Shown here in pieces: positions 24,232-63,992 of a DNA stretch of 64,000 nucleotides (positions are counted from its first letter, which is position 1; every line of letters begins with the position of its first letter). The notes under the pieces are model-generated. The model made no database searches. It saw nothing but the letters and a program-made list of their open reading frames with translations, and was not told the origin of the DNA. The position numbers and the translations under genes were made by a program. The stretch is from an uncultured Chloroflexia bacterium (lineage in GTDB: Bacteria; Chloroflexota; Dehalococcoidia; Dehalococcoidales; UBA2162). The stretch lies in NCBI GenBank assembly GCA_963739865.1, contig CAVUCA010000001.1:16748-80747 (forward strand), written 5' to 3'.

Positions 24232-24375
24232 CCATCAGATGCCCCCCGGCTCATCCCGCCCCGCCTCCCTGTCATTGTGAGGTACGAGCGCAGCACTCTG
24301 AACTTGTTTCAGAATCCAGTCGGTACCGTCATGAAAGAGGTTAGCTCCTTAGTAATCCGTACTGCCTAAATGATT

Positions 24376-30333: not shown

Positions 30334-30661
30334 AGATTTATCCTCCACAGACCAGCCTACGGAACGTAAGTCAAACCTGGCTGGGAGGATTCTACAACTG
30401 TAATGATGAACAATCTCTTAACTTCGTACCGGAAAATCTGAACATTGTCTGAATATTTTTAATCACCCTCTCCAGTAATCTGGAGAAGGAACTCTATCCT
30501 CGATGTAGACTGGAAAATTCATGGTAAGGCAGGTGTCCCGTCGGACGAAATCCAGCTATATCTACCCCCGGATCAAGTCCGGGGCAAACTTTTGGAAAAA
30601 GAAGAGGAACCCACGAAACAACCTGAAGCTAGTTTACAAGGTTTGTTGAAACAACCTCAGA

Positions 30662-30733
30662 CACGATTTGAGGCTAAATTCTATTTCCCCCTCACTTGCG
30701 TCTCTTGCCGCGAGGGGCGAGAGCAGAACGAGG
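30662..30733. repeat. conserved leader element (copy A) CACGATTTGA…CTCT..CC-loop-GAGGGGCGAGAG…; homologous to 62184-62246 and 56781-56820
   Basis: Direct alignment of 30662-30733 with 62184-62246 (~75% identity over ~70 nt) incl. imperfect inverted repeat CTCTTGCC/GGGGCGAGAG with compensatory differences relative to TCTCTCCC/GGGGCGAGAGA. Confidence 0.6.
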
Positions 30734-30835
30734 TATTTTTCCTTTTCTAAGGGTAGGCGCGGGGATCTGTCCCTACAAACTAAAAACTGAAATATCAATA
30801 ACAAATCAGTAATAGAAGAAATGTTCGAATAATTA

Positions 30836-30871
30836 TCATGTATAGTACCAGTGTTCTAAGGGTTTGTCAAT
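30836..30871 (-). promoter_or_regulatory. putative sigma-70 promoter + conserved operator-like motif for giant surface-protein gene (minus strand: TTGACA-AACCCTTAGAACACTGG-TACTAT)
   Basis: -35 TTGACA (30870-30865), 17-nt spacer, -10 TACTAT; 26-nt block TTGACAAAYCCTTAGAACACYGG is repeated at 62486-62461 upstream of MATE gene; implies ~500-nt 5' leader. Confidence 0.4.
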
Positions 30872-31064
30872 ACCCCTTTTTAAAAAATACTTAAAAACGG
30901 AGAGGGAACACGGACAATCCCCTGTTGTCCATGAATCACCGCTACCGGTGAGGCGATGCCATTAGCTTATCCGACGCCGCGCTAACAGGGGTGGCAGGTT
31001 TCTTTCCGGAGGGGTGGTACAGTTTAATCCGGAAAACGCACACGGCCGCACCAGTCATACTAAG

Positions 31065-32936: not shown

Positions 32937-33537
32937 CTTCTTCTCCTCCTTTAAAGACCGATCGTTCACCCCGAGGATTAAAGACTACAGCGGGGACCTT
33001 TTACCCGGCAGCGATGATACCACAAAGACATTCCATATCACAAGAAATAGGCATCGGAACGTTTAATATCTGAACAAAACATCGTTTTGTGACTTTATAA
33101 TCGATTTCAAACTACACACTACCGTTTCTTAAGTTAATACCCCTCAGAAAAATGGAATACTACGTCTTTAGTGCCGATACCGACTGGATTCTGAAACAAT
33201 TTCAGAATGACATTTGACGGTGTTTGCGGACAACCTCATATGAGACTTCTCATAATGACAGGGGGCAAAGGCGGGAGACTCTGGGCTACAGATACAAAAC
33301 TTTAGTATCTTTTATTTTCATTCTCGCCAGGTAAGCACAACTTCATATCATATCGGATATATTGATACTAAAGACTCACAATGATGGGACTTCCGTCTAC
33401 CAACAATAGGACGTTTTTAGCTTATTTTAGAATCCGGTTCCAAGCCACAATAAAGGTAACCATAACTGACCGGTTTCACCGTTAGTATTTCAAGAAAGGC
33501 ACCGAAGCAGGGTTGCGGATATAGGGGAAAATTCACT

Positions 33538-56736: not shown

Positions 56737-56780
56737 TACAGAAACACTAAATATCTAAATCCAAAAAAAATCGAAATACC

Positions 56781-56941
56781 TCTCACTCTAACTCTCTCCC
56801 GTAAGGGGCGAAAGGACTAACGATTCGGGTTCGCTCCTTCTCCCTTTGATGGGAGTCCCGACTCATCCTATTCGTACGGGATGCCATATAAATGGGTCGA
56901 CTCGCAGTCGAAGGAATCGGCAAAGGCCGGGATGAGGGTGA
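56781..56941. repeat. copy B of conserved hairpin-module element, interrupted by ~62-nt internal insertion
   Basis: 56781-56866 aligns with 62203-62280 (CTCTCCC…GGGGCGA.AG…CCTTCTCCCTTTGATGGGAG) and 56922-56941 (AAGGCCGGGATGAGGGTGA) aligns with 62280-62298; 62 nt between have no counterpart; lies between convergent gene ends. Confidence 0.55.
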
Positions 56942-56945
56942 TTCG

Positions 56946-58243: not shown

Positions 58244-59810
58244 TTACCCGCCGAGGATAGCCTTCATATCTGCTTCCGGTGTAGAAATCGGTTTGATATT
58301 GAATTTCTCCACCAGGACCTTTAGGACGTTGGGCGAGATGAAGGCCGGCAGTGAAGGCCCCAGGTAGATATTCTTGATGCCCAGCGAAAGCAGGGTCAGC
58401 AGGATAGCCACGGCTTTCTGCTCATACCAGGAAAGGACCAGGGTCAGCGGCAGGTCGTTGACGCCGCACTTGAAAGCACCGGCCAGAGCCAGGGCGACCT
58501 GGATGGCCGAGTAAGCATCGTTGCACTGACCCATATCCATGATACGGGGCAGGCCGCCGATCTCACCGATATTCAGGTCGTTAAAGCGGTACTTGCCGCA
58601 GGCCAGGGTCAGTACCACGGTATCGGCCGGGGTTTTCTTGACGAAATCGGTATAGTAATTGCGACCGGGTTTGGCGCCGTCACAGCCGCCCACCAGGAAG
58701 AAGTGCTTGATGGCGCCGGATTTCACGGCGTCAATGACTTTATCGGCCACGCCCATGACGGTATTGCGGGCGAAGCCGGTGGTAACCTCGGTGCCGCCGT
58801 TGATGCCGGTGAATTGCTTGTCTTCCGGCCAGCCCCCAGCTCCAGGGCTTTCTTGATGACCGGGGAGAAGTCCTTCTTCCCGTTCTTTTCCGGGATATGC
58901 TGTACACCGGGATAGCCCACCACTGAGGTGGTAAAGATGCTATCGATATAGGATTTCCCGCGGCATCATGATGCAGTTGGTGGTAAAGAGGATCGGAGCA
59001 GGCAGATTGGCAGAATTCCTTCTGCTGGTTCTGCCAGGCGGTGCCGAAGTTGCCCTTGAGGTGGGGGTATTTCTTCAGTTCGGGATAGGCGTGGGCGGGC
59101 AGCATTTCGCCGTGGGTATAGATATTGATGCCTTTCCCTTTGCTCTGTTCCAGCAGCTCTTTCAGGTCGAGTAAATCATGGCCGGTGACGACGATGAAAG
59201 GCCCTTTTTCGACCTTCAAAGTGACTTTGGTAGGGACGGGATGCCCATAGGTGGAGGTATTGGCTTCATCCAGCAGGGCCATGCATTTCAGGTTGACCTG
59301 GCCGAATTCCATGATCAGGGACAACCACTCATCCACACTGTGATTCTCACCCACCGCCAGCAACCCCTTGTAGAACCAGCCCGAGACCTCAGGATCGTCT
59401 TTACCGAGGACATGGGCGTGCAAGGCATATGCCGCCATGCCTTTCAGGCCGAAGATGAGCGCCGAACGGAGCGAGGTCGTATCCGTCTCGCCGTGATACA
59501 GGGCTTCGGTGTCATAGTCGGCGCTGCCGCCGAGTTTCGCCTTCTCTTTGGCTACGGCCTCGCGGTATTCATCGATGCGGGCGGGGTCGAAGTCCACATT
59601 CGTCAGGGTGGCGAAGAGGGCCTCCATCACCAGGACATCGACTGCTTTCCCGGGTGATCTACCTTTGGCAGCCCGGGCCAGGCCGATCAGGGCCGCTACC
59701 AGTTGGTCTTGTTTATGGGCGACTTCCGGTTTCTTACTGCAGACACCGACCTTGGTACAACCGGTGCCCCCGGCAGTTTGTTCGCATTGAAAACAGAACA
59801 TTTCAGCCAT
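58244..59810 (-). CDS. hcp: hybrid-cluster protein / hydroxylamine reductase Hcp; frame interrupted twice (~58985 and ~58840; ORFs 58740-59810, 58723-58923, 58244-58756)
   Basis: [29 protein letters not shown] (N-terminal cubane Cys cluster), …[14 protein letters not shown] | …[30 protein letters not shown] | …[35 protein letters not shown]…; second shift lies in a C5 run (GGCCAGCCCCCAGC). Confidence 0.8.
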
Positions 59811-60613: not shown

Positions 60614-61999
60614 CTAAAGGCGTTTTTTCATCCAGCGGCCGGTGAAGAAGTAGGCCGTATATGCGGCCGTACTGATCAAAGCACTGATGATCATCGCCCA
60701 GCGGATGCCGTAGATCTCCAGCCCGGTGTGTTGTGACAACCAGAAAGCCAGGGGAAGCTGCACGGCCCACATAGTGACGATGCTGACGATCATATTCGGC
60801 CAGGTATCGCCGGCCCCGGCGATGCAGTTTTGCAGTATCATGGCGAAACCGGAGATCAGGTAACCGGCGGCGGCGATGCGCAGGAAGGCAGCCCCCAGGG
60901 ATATCAGGCCGGCCTCGCTGGAAAAGATGCCGATGATACTTTCCGCCCACAGCAGGATCACGGCGGCACAGACGGCCATGAAGATTTCTACTAAGGCGAC
61001 GGCCAGCCAGGCGCTTTTCTTCGCCCGGGCAGGTTGTCCGGCCCCGAGGTTCTGTCCGATGAGGACGCCGGCCCCGGTACCAAGGCCCATACCGGGGACG
61101 AAGAGGAACATTTCCACCCGGCCGGCCAGGCTGTGCGCAGCCAGGGCCAGGGTCCCGAAGGGGATGATCAGCCGCATCAGGAGCATGCTGCCGAAAGCCC
61201 CCTGGATATTCATGGCCACGGCGGGGAGGCCGATCTTGAAGATGCGCCAGATGATGTTCCAGTTGATACGCAAGTCCTGCGGGATAAGGCGGATGCGGGT
61301 GCGGCCACGGAACATGACCCAGATGATGGCGATAGCACCCAGTACCTGGGCCAGCACATTACTCAAGGCAGCCCCGCCGACCCCCATGCGGGGGAATACC
61401 CAGAGGCCGAGGACGAGGAAGGGGCAAAGTGTCACATGAATAACCCGAATGCCCGCTTCGATGATCATGGGGGTGACAGTATCACCGGCAGCCTGAACGG
61501 CGTACAGACTCATCATCAGCAGTTCCATGCCTACCCAGCCGGTCAACATCACCCGCAGATAAGCCGTCCCCTGGGCGACCACCGCCGGTTCAGTACCGAA
61601 TAGGCCTAATACTTTTTCCGCCAGCAGCAGGCCGATAACCGTGATGGCGGTGCCGAAACATGCCCCGAGTATGAGGGCCTGTCCGGCCACACGGGCAGCC
61701 TCCTGCGGGTTGCCGGCGCCGATATAACGGGCGATCATCGCCCGCACCCCGGTGAGGATACCCATATCCAGCGAGAAGACCATCATGACGATGATGTTGG
61801 CAAGGCCGACACCGGCGATAGCGTCCGAACCCAGCTTCCCGATCCAGATCATATCGACGATCTGGCCGGCCGTCCACAGCCCTTCCATGAGCACCATTGG
61901 CCACGAAAGTAAAAGTAAGTTACTGATGACGGAACCTTTGGTCCAGTCTTTCTGGCGAAGACTGGTTTTGGGGGCTGGGGCGGTGGTTTTCGACGCCAT
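60614..61999 (-). CDS. MATE family efflux transporter
   Basis: 461 aa, 12 predicted TM helices, N-terminal MATE signature region (…ISNLLLLSWPMVLMEGLWTAGQIVDMIWIGKLGSDAIAGV…). Confidence 0.85.
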   Translation of the reverse strand: MASKTTAPAPKTSLRQKDWTKGSVISNLLLLSWPMVLMEGLWTAGQIVDMIWIGKLGSDAIAGVGLANIIVMMVFSLDMGILTGVRAMIARYIGAGNPQEAARVAGQALILGACFGTAITVIGLLLAEKVLGLFGTEPAVVAQGTAYLRVMLTGWVGMELLMMSLYAVQAAGDTVTPMIIEAGIRVIHVTLCPFLVLGLWVFPRMGVGGAALSNVLAQVLGAIAIIWVMFRGRTRIRLIPQDLRINWNIIWRIFKIGLPAVAMNIQGAFGSMLLMRLIIPFGTLALAAHSLAGRVEMFLFVPGMGLGTGAGVLIGQNLGAGQPARAKKSAWLAVALVEIFMAVCAAVILLWAESIIGIFSSEAGLISLGAAFLRIAAAGYLISGFAMILQNCIAGAGDTWPNMIVSIVTMWAVQLPLAFWLSQHTGLEIYGIRWAMIISALISTAAYTAYFFTGRWMKKRL

Positions 62000-62183
62000 G
62001 ATTTGCAGTATCCTTTTTTTCAGGTGCGTTAATGGTAGCAGATAGGAGGAAAAAGATAAATGGGAGATAAAAACTCAAAGAAATAAGCGCAAAATTCAAA
62101 GCAAGTACCAGATACCAGGGGAAAAATGATCCTCTGTTATGACTGGCGGGACCCCGGTCAGCCCTTGAAATAACAATCTCAGG

Positions 62184-62405
62184 CACGATTTGAATCTGAT
62201 TCCCCTCTCTCTGACTCTCTCCCACAGAGGGGCGAGAGAACTAGCGTTCAAGGTTAGCCCCTTCTCCTTTTAATGGGAGAAGGCCGGGATGAGGGTGACT
62301 AATAATCCACAATTACTACCTCTCTCCCGCACTAGAGCTAGAAGACCATCAATCTCGTGGTTAGCCCCTTCTCCCTTTGATGGGAGAAGGTTGGGATGAG
62401 GGTGA
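62184..62405. repeat. conserved leader element copy C: core (62184-62246) plus two tandem hairpin modules TTAGCCCCTTCTCC(C)TTT(G/T)A(A)TGGGAGAAGG..GGGATGAGGGTGA (62254-62298, 62361-62405)
   Basis: Direct sequence comparison with 30662-30733 and 56781-56941; modules contain perfect 9-bp inverted repeat CCTTCTCCC/GGGAGAAGG. Confidence 0.6.
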
Positions 62406-62451
62406 AAACCTGGAATTAATACTTATTATTTTATAAACTAACTCGGGTTCT

Positions 62452-62486
62452 TATATGATAGCGCCGGTGTTCTAAGGATTTGTCAA
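62452..62486 (-). promoter_or_regulatory. second copy of promoter/operator-like motif (minus strand TTGACA-AATCCTTAGAACACCGG-CGCTATCAT), upstream of MATE gene; overlaps last codons of histidine-kinase gene
   Basis: 24/26 identity with 30871-30846 block; -10 candidates CGCTAT (17-nt spacer) or TATCAT (19 nt). Confidence 0.35.
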
Positions 62487-63884
62487 GACTGACTGACGGC
62501 CTTACCCGGCAGATAAACCGTGAACGTGCTGCCCTTGCCGGACTTACTTTTCACCTCGATGCGGCCGCCGTGGAGTTCGGCGATGCGCTTGCAGATGGCC
62601 AGCCCCAGCCCCGCCCCCCCGTCTTTCTCCATTCCCTCCTGCTCCACCCGGTAGAACCGTTCGAAGATATGGGGCGAGGTGCTTTGCCGGGATGCCGATG
62701 CCGGTATCGCTGACGGCTGCCAGGAAAAAGCCGTCCTCCTGCGATAACGACAGCGTGACCGTGCCCCCGGTGGGGGTATAACGCACGGCGTTGCCGGCCA
62801 AGTTGAGGAAGCACTCCCGCAGGCGGGTCTGGTCGCCCCGGATACGGAAATTCCCGGCCATTTCCGGGATATCGGTGTGGAAGATGATGCCCTTTTCGGC
62901 GCACAGCCCGGCAACCCCCGCCGCGATATCTTCCAACAATTCCTTAAGGTCGAATGCTTCTTTGATAATACCGCTGCCGTTTTCCGAGCGGGCCAGGAAT
63001 AAGAGCCGGTTGGCCATCGCCGAAACATGGGTGATTTCACGGGATACCGTTTCCAGTGCTTTCTGGTACTCCTTTCCGCTTCTACCTTTAGTTAAAGCCA
63101 GGCTGGCTTCCGCCTGGGCGATCGCCAGTGGTGTCCGCAGTTCATGAGAAATGTCGGCCGTGATCTGGCGTTCGGCATCAAAGGCATTCTCCACCCGGTC
63201 GAACATCTGGTTCATAGAAGTTGCTAATGCCCCTAATTCATCTTGACGGCCCACGTCGAACCGTCCTTTCAAGTCTTTCACCGTCATTTCCCGGGCGGCC
63301 CGGGTGATCGCCTGCAGCGGCTGCAGCATGCGCCAAACCAGGAAGAAGCCCAATATGCCGGCTGCCAGTAAGGTAATGCCGGCAGCGATGATAGTCGTAC
63401 GGCGGAAGATACCGGTAAGCGATGCCTGGCCGGTATCGGATTGAGTAGCGACTACCAGTTTCCGGTCGGCGGGGTCGTTTTTCGAGATGAAAAGGTAAAG
63501 CCACATCCCCTCCCCGTCCGTATTACCGGGGCCGGTGAGGAGATTCCGGTCAACCAGGATCGGCTTCCCGCCGAAAACTTCTATCTTCACCGTAAGGTTG
63601 TCCGCTGCCGACTCCAGTAAACGGAAAACCGGGATCTGCATCCCGGTGTATCCGGTATCTACTCCCATCTGGCCGGTAATGCTGGTAAAACCGTTGATGC
63701 GGCCGCTGCCATCCGCTAAAAAGGCGATATCGGCGATGCGCATATCATACGGTGTGACGATGTTCCGGGATAAACCTTCGACTAAAAAGAAGTAGCTGGA
63801 GATACCGAATAAGGCTACCAGCACCGTCACGATGAAAAGGTACCAGGCGGTAAGCCGGAATTTGATATTGTTAAAAATTTTCAT
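62483..63884 (-). CDS. sensor histidine kinase (2 TM, periplasmic domain, HAMP, HisKA, HATPase_c); frame interrupted once at ~62700
   Basis: ATG 63884 ([23 protein letters not shown]…) with SD AGGAAAG; H-box [13 protein letters not shown]; N-box [11 protein letters not shown]; G-boxes …[13 protein letters not shown]|[39 protein letters not shown] continuous if one C is removed from CTCGCCCCAT run; ORFs 62544-63929 + 62483-63040. Confidence 0.75.
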
Positions 63885-63921
63885 CTTTCCTGAGGTTGTC
63901 AGAAAACTAAAATTAACCCCC

Positions 63922-63992
63922 ATTCCCACGGAGGTGGGAATCCAGAGTCAGGCACAAAATCAAGCATCTGGACTCCCGATCGAGTCGGGAGT
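63922..63992. repeat. pair of short GC-stem hairpins (ATTCCCAC-GGAG-GTGGGAAT and ACTCCCGA-TCGAG-TCGGGAGT) plus third GTGGGAAT at window end
   Basis: Perfect 8-bp inverted repeats at 63922-63941 and 63972-63992; motif GTGGGAAT recurs 63993-64000. Confidence 0.4.

Follow-up and report, generated by a model that had tools for sequence, protein, structure and literature searches.

The closest described systems to the repeats under study are the BoxC elements of the 1990s (Bergler 1992) and the PIT elements of the Maher laboratory (Hoyne/Maher, 2000), both as cited in PMC4666352, and the TMECO motifs of Escherichia coli. The three are equated by Holder et al. (2015, PMC4666352), who give for them the pattern CCCTCNCCC N3-6 GGGNGAGGG N3 GGGNGAGGG. 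TMECO motifs, reported from 262 proteobacterial genomes, lie in intergenic DNA in both orientations and in inverted pairs, at loci with an excess of variability, and are linked neither to transposons nor to phages or plasmids (PMC4666352). The isolated strand forms triplexes in vitro with Tm values of 70-82 C, a G-quadruplex having been excluded by NMR, and the triplex went undetected in double-stranded DNA or in vivo (PMC4666352). Purine-motif triplexes do not form in RNA, and the TMECO motifs display neither promoter nor terminator activity (Holder et al. 2015, PMC4666352).

We have analysed a stretch of DNA of 64 kb (the window), in which an initial annotation had described a family of structured leader elements, represented by a core and two 45-nt modules in one flagged region (region C, with core copy C) and by a second core (copy A). 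Two alternatives were put forward in it, namely that the family is a cis-regulatory RNA or that it is a MITE-like repeat; the latter comes closest to the truth, BoxC, PIT and TMECO being interspersed repeats, whereas the regulatory RNA family is unsupported. We estimate at roughly 0.8 the probability that the modules at 62203-62405, and likewise their decayed relatives (30684-30729 and 56780-56944), belong to the BoxC/PIT/TMECO kind of interspersed DNA repeat and do not regulate the genes for the MATE pump and the 1753-aa protein.

Three intrastrand triplex motifs in region C

The sequence strings on which the initial annotation was built are present in the window where it had placed them. The modules, at 62252-62298 and 62359-62405, share 91% identity, with 107 nt from one to the next. 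The core hairpin, on the minus strand, and the two modules, on the plus strand, correspond to three complete intrastrand triplex motifs (Table 1). In each, two 9-nt arms, C-rich and then G-rich, enclose a loop; after a further loop of 3 nt comes another G-rich arm, the mirror image of the one before. The core and the first module form an inverted pair, as do the type A and type B copies of E. coli. The core carries a G x A mismatch, the same as in the E. coli 'mm'-type TMECO, and in the second module every Watson-Crick pair and every triad is legal; the perfect 9-bp stem that had been attributed to both modules is a property of the second, the first having 8 bp plus a T.G pair.

The motifs were located using a strict rule. 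It asks for a pyrimidine arm of 9 nt and, after a loop of 3-8 nt, for an all-purine complement in which one mismatch is tolerated; a loop of 2-4 nt then leads to a third arm, running antiparallel to the purine one, whose triads must be G*G, A*A or T*A, a single exception being allowed. Over the 64-kb window this rule retrieves exactly three matches, all within the flagged region, and none in 20 composition-preserving shuffles; a relaxed version adds a fourth motif in the window. The hairpin arms of the three motifs have 0-1 mismatch, the second loop is always of 3 nt, and none of the antiparallel purine-motif triads is illegal. The 24-nt tail of the modules has no chance match in 100 shuffles, and a third, degenerate match to it lies at position 56918.

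The literal TMECO pattern is not matched by the window motifs. Since their arm differences are coordinated triad changes, they are not strictly TMECO but a variant in sequence of the same kind of motif, and because of this departure from the literal pattern triplex formation by the A-containing variant is inferred. A G-quadruplex reading of the G-rich arm was set aside, the NMR exclusion concerning TMECO and not the window variant.

Table 1. Positions, strands and composition of the features discussed, in the window and in metagenome contigs (L127-L131).
Feature	Position	Strand	Composition or remark
Spacer with copy A	30349-31064		716 nt; between the genes for a 1753-aa beta-helix/CARDB/fn3 protein and a Band-7 protein, both minus
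AACAACCT/CACGATTTGA element, full, copy A	30616..30680	-	
Triplex motif of copy A, decayed	30684..30729	-	hairpin arm and GTGAGGGGG tail left
Promoter-like block, copy A	30842..30870 (block to 30873)	-	sigma-70-like TTGACA-17-TACTAT, upstream TG
Copy D minus-strand motif, slightly degenerate	56780..56814	-	CTTTCGCCC / CTTAC / GGGAGAGAG / TTA / GAGTGAGAG
Copy D plus-strand motif	56836..56944	+	GGGAG and AAGG separated by an insert of ~66 nt, unique in sequence
MATE efflux gene	60614..61999	-	start at 61999; one flank of region C
Spacer with region C	62000-62482		483 nt; between two minus-strand genes
AACAACCT/CACGATTTGA element, right half alone, copy C	62170..62196	-	left half missing
Triplex motif 1 (core)	62203..62238	-	CTCTCGCCC / CTCTGT / GGGAGAGAG / TCA / GAGAGAGGG; strict motif search
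Triplex motif 2 (module 1)	62260..62298 (search match 62260-62295)	+	CCTTCTCCT / TTTAAT / GGGAGAAGG / CCG / GGATGAGGG + TGA
Decayed minus-strand motif of the second 107-nt unit	62318..62345	-	local alignment with copy D
Triplex motif 3 (module 2)	62367..62405 (search match 62367-62402)	+	CCTTCTCCC / TTTGAT / GGGAGAAGG / TTG / GGATGAGGG + TGA
Promoter-like block, region C	62455..62489	-	TTGACA 62486-62481; TATCAT 62460-62455 after 20 nt, or CGCTAT after 17
HAMP/HisKA/HATPase kinase gene	final codons end 62483	-	other flank of region C
Promoter-like block, homologues	L127:214-242, L128:1503-1531		
AACAACCT/CACGATTTGA element in metagenome contigs	L127:74-100, L128:1797-1855(-), L129:107-165, L130:11751-11809, L131:1142-1200		

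Genomic setting, duplication and decay

Both spacers lie between minus-strand genes, the best named relatives of the MATE protein being proteins of Chloroflexi/Dehalococcoidia MAGs. The notion of leaders downstream of a shared plus-strand promoter does not survive this arrangement: as nothing is encoded downstream on the plus strand, a leader on it has no gene to lead, and the sole strong promoter-like block that the two spacers share is on the minus strand. Homology between copies A and C is real, as it extends over a 74-nt block common to both (A 30650-30723 versus C 62172-62238; 70% identity, E 4e-7 in a pairwise search); what had been taken as a single 70-nt core is, however, the right end of a distinct element, AACAACCT/CACGATTTGA, joined to a triplex motif unrelated to it. 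Likewise, the arm difference between A and C that had been considered base-pair-preserving is one-sided, the 3' arm GGGGCGAGAG being identical and the 5' arm alone differing, and is thus not compensatory covariation. A mosaic of short repeat modules is the most fitting description of each spacer.

Further copies do exist, namely a degenerate core plus a split module at 56780-56945 (copy D) and a core with its flank in metagenome contig L129. The copy D locus (56775-56945) sits between convergent genes of the URO-D and flavodoxin families. Given the decayed second minus-strand motif at 62318..62345, region C is a tandem duplication of a 107-nt unit made up of a minus-strand triplex motif, a spacer and a plus-strand triplex motif. 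Copy A has decayed to the point of failing even the relaxed triplex or hairpin rule. The duplicated unit with one decayed arm, the 66-nt insertion in copy D and the decay of copy A are all signs of local instability.

A number of additional features were observed in these surroundings. The ~66-nt insert of copy D (56856-56921) has small palindromes of its own, GAGTC..GACTC and TCGACTCGCAGTCGA, and is without a second copy in the window and in the loci retrieved. The copy A spacer contains a remnant hairpin on the minus strand (30466-30495), CCTTCTCCAG-ATTA-CTGGAGAGGG followed by TGA, which resembles a triplex motif devoid of the third arm. An inverted repeat pair, 24268-24345 (+) and 33160-33265 (-), with 48 nt at 85% complementarity and comprising CCCTGTCATT(G/A)TGAG and the palindrome TTCTGAAATTGTTTCAGAA, brackets an 8.8-kb segment with the 1753-aa protein gene, copy A and the Band-7 gene. 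Two minus-strand genes are each split into two overlapping frames: the kinase gene (62483-63929), with positions 1-76 and 54-108 of the HATPase_c profile in different ORFs, and a prismane/hybrid-cluster gene (58244-59810), with positions 1-271 and 346-513 of the Prismane profile in different ORFs; these are pseudogenes or assembly indel errors.

The AACAACCT/CACGATTTGA element and the promoter-like block

A metagenome scan with AACAAYCTCAGRCACGATTTGA returned five contigs (L127-L131), which together with copy A define an element of ~65 nt, AAACAACCTGAAGCTA...GTTGAAACAACCTCAGRCACGATTTGARGCTAAA, whose left boundary is sharp; in copy C and L127 its right half alone is left. Triplex motifs follow directly after the element in copy A, copy C and L129, and do not in L127, L128, L130 and L131. 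It is placed upstream of unrelated minus-strand genes, coding for the MATE pump, the 1753-aa secreted protein and DnaE2-like polymerases, the latter in L129 and L130, both of which have no clear promoter-like block. The predicted consensus fold amounts to -11.5 kcal/mol on the minus strand versus -2.3 kcal/mol on the plus strand, with 17 pairs on the minus strand, several of them G.U, and with z-scores of -0.7 to -2.75 (minus) and +0.5 to -1.2 (plus). No double compensatory change is found in five sequences of the element, and an Rfam scan of the five contigs yielded tRNA alone. The element, which occurs in several gene contexts, is thus predicted to fold weakly as a minus-strand hairpin, and it is in this altered form that one part of the RNA idea survives. 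A reading as CRISPR repeat or att site was dropped by eye, there being no array and no integrase. An A-rich sequence of the AAATCCTAAG / AAATATCTAAATCC type also recurs by these elements, at 56740-56790 in the window and to the right of the AACAACCT element in L128, L130 and L131, and may be a further short repeat family.

The promoter-like block shared by A and C spans 41 nt with 83% identity, and in region C its -35 hexamer is overlapped by the stop codon of the kinase gene. The block (TTGACA, 17-20 nt, TATGAT/TACTAT/TATCAT) is located 150-330 nt away from the AACAACCT/CACGATTTGA element, on the far side, in copies A and C, in L127 and in L128, and more loosely in L129. Its spacer holds GAAC-N4-GT(A/G)C, one or two mismatches away from a LexA box of the Gram-positive type, and in the window the block and the AACAACCT module are upstream of a DinF-like MATE pump. 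A reading of this sequence as LexA box is retained as a lead alone, considering the 1-2 mismatches, the overlap of one half-site with an extended -10 and the absence of the block from the MATE spacers of relatives; the same holds for a putative SOS link.

Distribution across phyla and homology to the E. coli elements

The module string GGAGAAGGnnGGGATGAGGGTGA is found unchanged in at least 120 loci from about 10 phyla by record title, with one genome per species. Among the matches listed are Dehalococcoidia/Chloroflexota, Gamma-, Beta- and Alphaproteobacteria, Thermodesulfobacteriota, Planctomycetota, Verrucomicrobia, Atribacterota, FCPU426, Poribacteria, Fermentibacteria and Omnitrophota, and two cultured isolates (Acinetobacter sp. 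ANC 4470 and Planctopirus hydrillae). The listed copies have in common CC(C/T)TTCTCCC-loop-GGGAGAAGG-nn-GGGATGAGGGTGA and often adjoin an inverted sister unit, CCCCTCACCCTnnCCCTCTCCC-loop-GGG(A/GC)GAGGG. Motifs fall inside long open frames in 33% of cases versus 83% for random positions, and are thus depleted there. In the window, in other genomes and in E. coli alike, the motifs are multi-copy and intergenic, in both orientations and in inverted pairs.

Using as query a consensus-like pair from locus L080, the element was detected in 4911 of 5426 complete E. coli genomes, at a median of 8 places per genome, for example between cpsG and wcaJ and upstream of fabI. The fabI copy is TMECO #9 (entry 9 of Table 1 in Holder et al. 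2015, PMC4666352), and the window core is collinear with this K-12 sequence at ~84% identity, 31 of 37 columns matching, the first loop and the G x A mismatch included. Of the five substitutions, three belong together as a coordinated change of a single triad (C-G*G to T-A*A), another turns T*A into A*A, and the last is in loop 2. Homology to the E. coli copies is found for the modules as well, with respect to type-B copies.

These data also bear on the trivial reading that we are dealing with chance similarity of low-complexity CT/GA-rich sequence. The arms are indeed simple purine or pyrimidine runs, and a BLAST search with 101 nt taken from the window itself, run against plasmids and E. coli, gave CT-rich noise alone, unrelated CT-rich stretches of E. 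coli and Neisseria being matched. Chance of this sort is, however, hardly credible in view of the three strict motifs against none in shuffled sequence, the equally unmatched module tail, the recurrence of an identical module string in so many genome loci and the collinearity of the core with TMECO #9 down to its first loop.

Covariation of the third arm

Within 0.87 Mb around the 120 listed loci we examined 796 pyrimidine/purine hairpins. The number of illegal triads in the third arm is bimodal, with at most one in 213 of the 796 and the remainder centred on 4-5. Each type of purine arm is paired with its mirror, as in GGGAGAGGG/GGGTGAGGG (24 copies), GGGAGAGGA/AGGTGAGGG (22), GGGAGAGGA/AGGAGAGGG (4), GGGGGAAGG/GGATGGGGG and the window's own GGGAGAGAG/GAGAGAGGG. 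In asymmetric arms the relation is that of a mirror and not of a direct repeat, a pattern which fits an antiparallel third strand, as this needs the mirror. All three arms covary across the variants (C-G*G to T-A*A); the main class, of 118 copies, was preselected by the search pattern, so that the independent evidence for covariation comes from the other classes alone, and copies within one genome are non-independent events. As purine-motif triplexes do not form in RNA (PMC4666352), the constraint on the third arm points to single-stranded DNA and not to a transcript. Judging from the sequences, the three-arm covariation fits a DNA triplex of the purine type and not an RNA fold.

Orthologous spacers and the question of an RNA leader

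We have examined three relatives (L123, L124 and L125) whose MATE proteins are 79-80% identical to that of the window and which keep the kinase-MATE-Crp-prismane gene order. Triplex motifs, AACAACCT element and promoter-like block are all missing from their kinase-MATE spacers, which match the window over the last ~90 nt before the ATG alone (74-77% identity). The locus is thus variable between related genomes, as judged from the one orthologous locus compared, at ~80% protein identity. The relatives' spacers carry another repeat, TTCGACAGGCTCAGTATGAGCGGACTTGCCAGCAGAACA.CCTGC..TACCTTACA, at L123:3595-3710, where it is tandemly doubled, and at L125:2062-2125; a portion is also present in contig L131, which is unrelated (minus strand, ~361-387 of the 1015-1705 segment).

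The absence of the motifs from these spacers is of direct relevance to the proposal of a cis-regulatory RNA leader, in which the hairpins would be transcribed from the minus-strand promoter-like block within 5' UTRs of ~450 nt (MATE gene) and ~490 nt (1753-aa protein gene) and would exert control by attenuation, RNA stability or ligand binding. In both A and C the motifs lie between this block and the start of a minus-strand gene, so that transcription into a long 5' UTR is possible, and the same module order recurs in L127, L128 and L129. Nevertheless, both motif orientations occur within one spacer, a copy is found between convergent genes, and the downstream genes are unrelated to each other; the same element adjoins genes of every sort in E. 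coli and across ~10 phyla, and for the TMECO motifs of E. coli earlier tests revealed neither promoter nor terminator activity (PMC4666352). A fixed position or orientation relative to a regulated gene, conserved in orthologues, is not displayed by the motifs. Compensatory base-pair changes in support of an RNA fold are also missing, as the A versus C change is one-sided and the covariation of the family follows DNA purine-motif rules. Finally, Rfam offers no family, since scans of the whole window at the gathering threshold and of both spacers at E<=10 gave tRNA and noise alone. A leader function of this kind is therefore improbable, although a local RNA-level effect of the motifs is possible.

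Spread of the repeats

The manner in which such units would move from one place to another was addressed by inspecting the surroundings of the 120 listed loci. Clustering of the ORFs within +/-4 kb reveals no recurring transposase or nuclease family, the largest clusters of neighbours belonging to the ABC-F, kinase/regulator, SDR, CoA-transferase and GFO families. In 2.9 million viral contigs there are no matches to the motif string, nor to a second pattern.

A non-autonomous element of the MITE or REP/REPIN type, mobilised by a trans-acting transposase such as a Y1/HUH enzyme encoded elsewhere in the genome and having the inverted pair as terminal or subterminal hairpins, would concern the spread of the repeats and is compatible with the main explanation. 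It would agree with a repeat that is multi-copy, intergenic and polymorphic for presence or absence, with the likeness of the inverted pairs to REP doublets, and with the fact that in some genomes, such as at the Methylophaga loci, the motifs sit in longer genome-specific repeats. Yet neither the gene neighbourhoods nor the viral contigs bear it out, Holder et al. report no transposon, phage or plasmid link (PMC4666352), and the near-identity across phyla is unlike what lineage-specific REPs display. The REP/REPIN type would also require the classical tag, GTAG/CGTC, which is absent from the sequence, in addition to the recurrent transposase. Inverted motif pairs could pass as the inverted repeats of a MITE; among the relatives compared no empty site is close enough in sequence to delimit a target-site duplication. 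Altogether, we regard mobilisation by a transposase as unlikely.

A joint reading, to which we also give rather little weight, combines copying of the A-variant by a host-independent single-stranded-DNA mechanism with a composite module of the lineage that would deliver a promoter, with a possible LexA-like operator (GAAC-N4-GTNC), and a structured 5' UTR. Its first part draws on the near-identity of a ~40-nt element in ~10 phyla with no transposase, phage or plasmid partner, and its second on the combination of the minus-strand promoter-like block, the triplex motifs and the AACAACCT/CACGATTTGA hairpin element, set before a DinF-like MATE pump, a large secreted protein and a DnaE2-like polymerase.

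Proposed mechanism and implications

In the preferred explanation, that of interspersed DNA repeats of the BoxC/PIT/TMECO kind, the G-rich strand would become single-stranded during replication, repair or transcription, upon which the hairpin would take the third arm into its major groove, yielding an antiparallel purine-motif triplex of G*G-C, A*A-T and T*A-T triads. The units would be structural repeats of a selfish or neutral nature, tolerated for the most part between genes and destabilising the spacer in which they reside; in the window they form a mosaic together with the AACAACCT/CACGATTTGA element and the promoter-like block. Their spread might proceed, as a guess, by copying of single-stranded DNA, via template switching or a trans-acting enzyme. 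We infer that any effect on neighbouring genes is small.

For annotation, these results imply that the hairpins should be masked as BoxC/TMECO-like repeats and not listed as candidate riboswitches or sRNAs, which removes a recurrent false positive of intergenic scans. The window is also an added data point for a repeat kind that is not confined to Proteobacteria. The three-way covariation of the arms, as required by an intrastrand DNA triplex, sharpens the question of how such a repeat spreads across phyla with no known mobile partner. The practical importance is modest.

Comparison with known systems

H-DNA-forming mirror repeats have in common with the window motifs the homopurine/homopyrimidine mirror symmetry and a link to genetic instability. 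In H-DNA, however, the structure arises from a long mirror repeat in supercoiled duplex, whereas in the window the third strand is provided by the same strand beside the hairpin and is thus intrastrand.

The REP and REPIN sequences mobilised by RAYT/TnpA-REP are likewise short, G+C-rich palindromic intergenic repeats, often in inverted doublets. REPs are lineage-specific and their classical tag is GTAG/CGTC; the window repeat, on the contrary, lacks this tag and has no Y1 transposase near the 120 listed loci, is near-identical across phyla and has an extra third arm under a mirror-symmetry constraint.

The window spacers, being variously combined short modules (triplex motifs, AACAACCT element and promoter-like block), also recall the BIMEs of enterobacteria, which are bacterial interspersed mosaic elements made of REP/PU palindromes and defined linker motifs (see also PMC3333891). 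The REP/PU palindromes and linker motifs are, however, absent from the window spacers.

The comparison with BoxC, PIT and TMECO is the closest. Two differences are to be noted: the arms of the window motifs have A in place of G (GGGAGAAGG/GGATGAGGG and GGGAGAGAG/GAGAGAGGG), triplex biophysics concerning TMECO oligonucleotides alone, and the host of the window is probably Chloroflexota/Dehalococcoidia-like, whereas those reported for TMECO are proteobacterial. In both, the three arms measure 9 nt, loop one has 3-6 nt and loop two 3 nt, the triads are of the purine-motif type and the 'mm' G x A mismatch occurs; in both, the loci are variable and the motifs intergenic, in either orientation; and in both, the motifs come as inverted pairs that combine two loop types, one of which is CCG.
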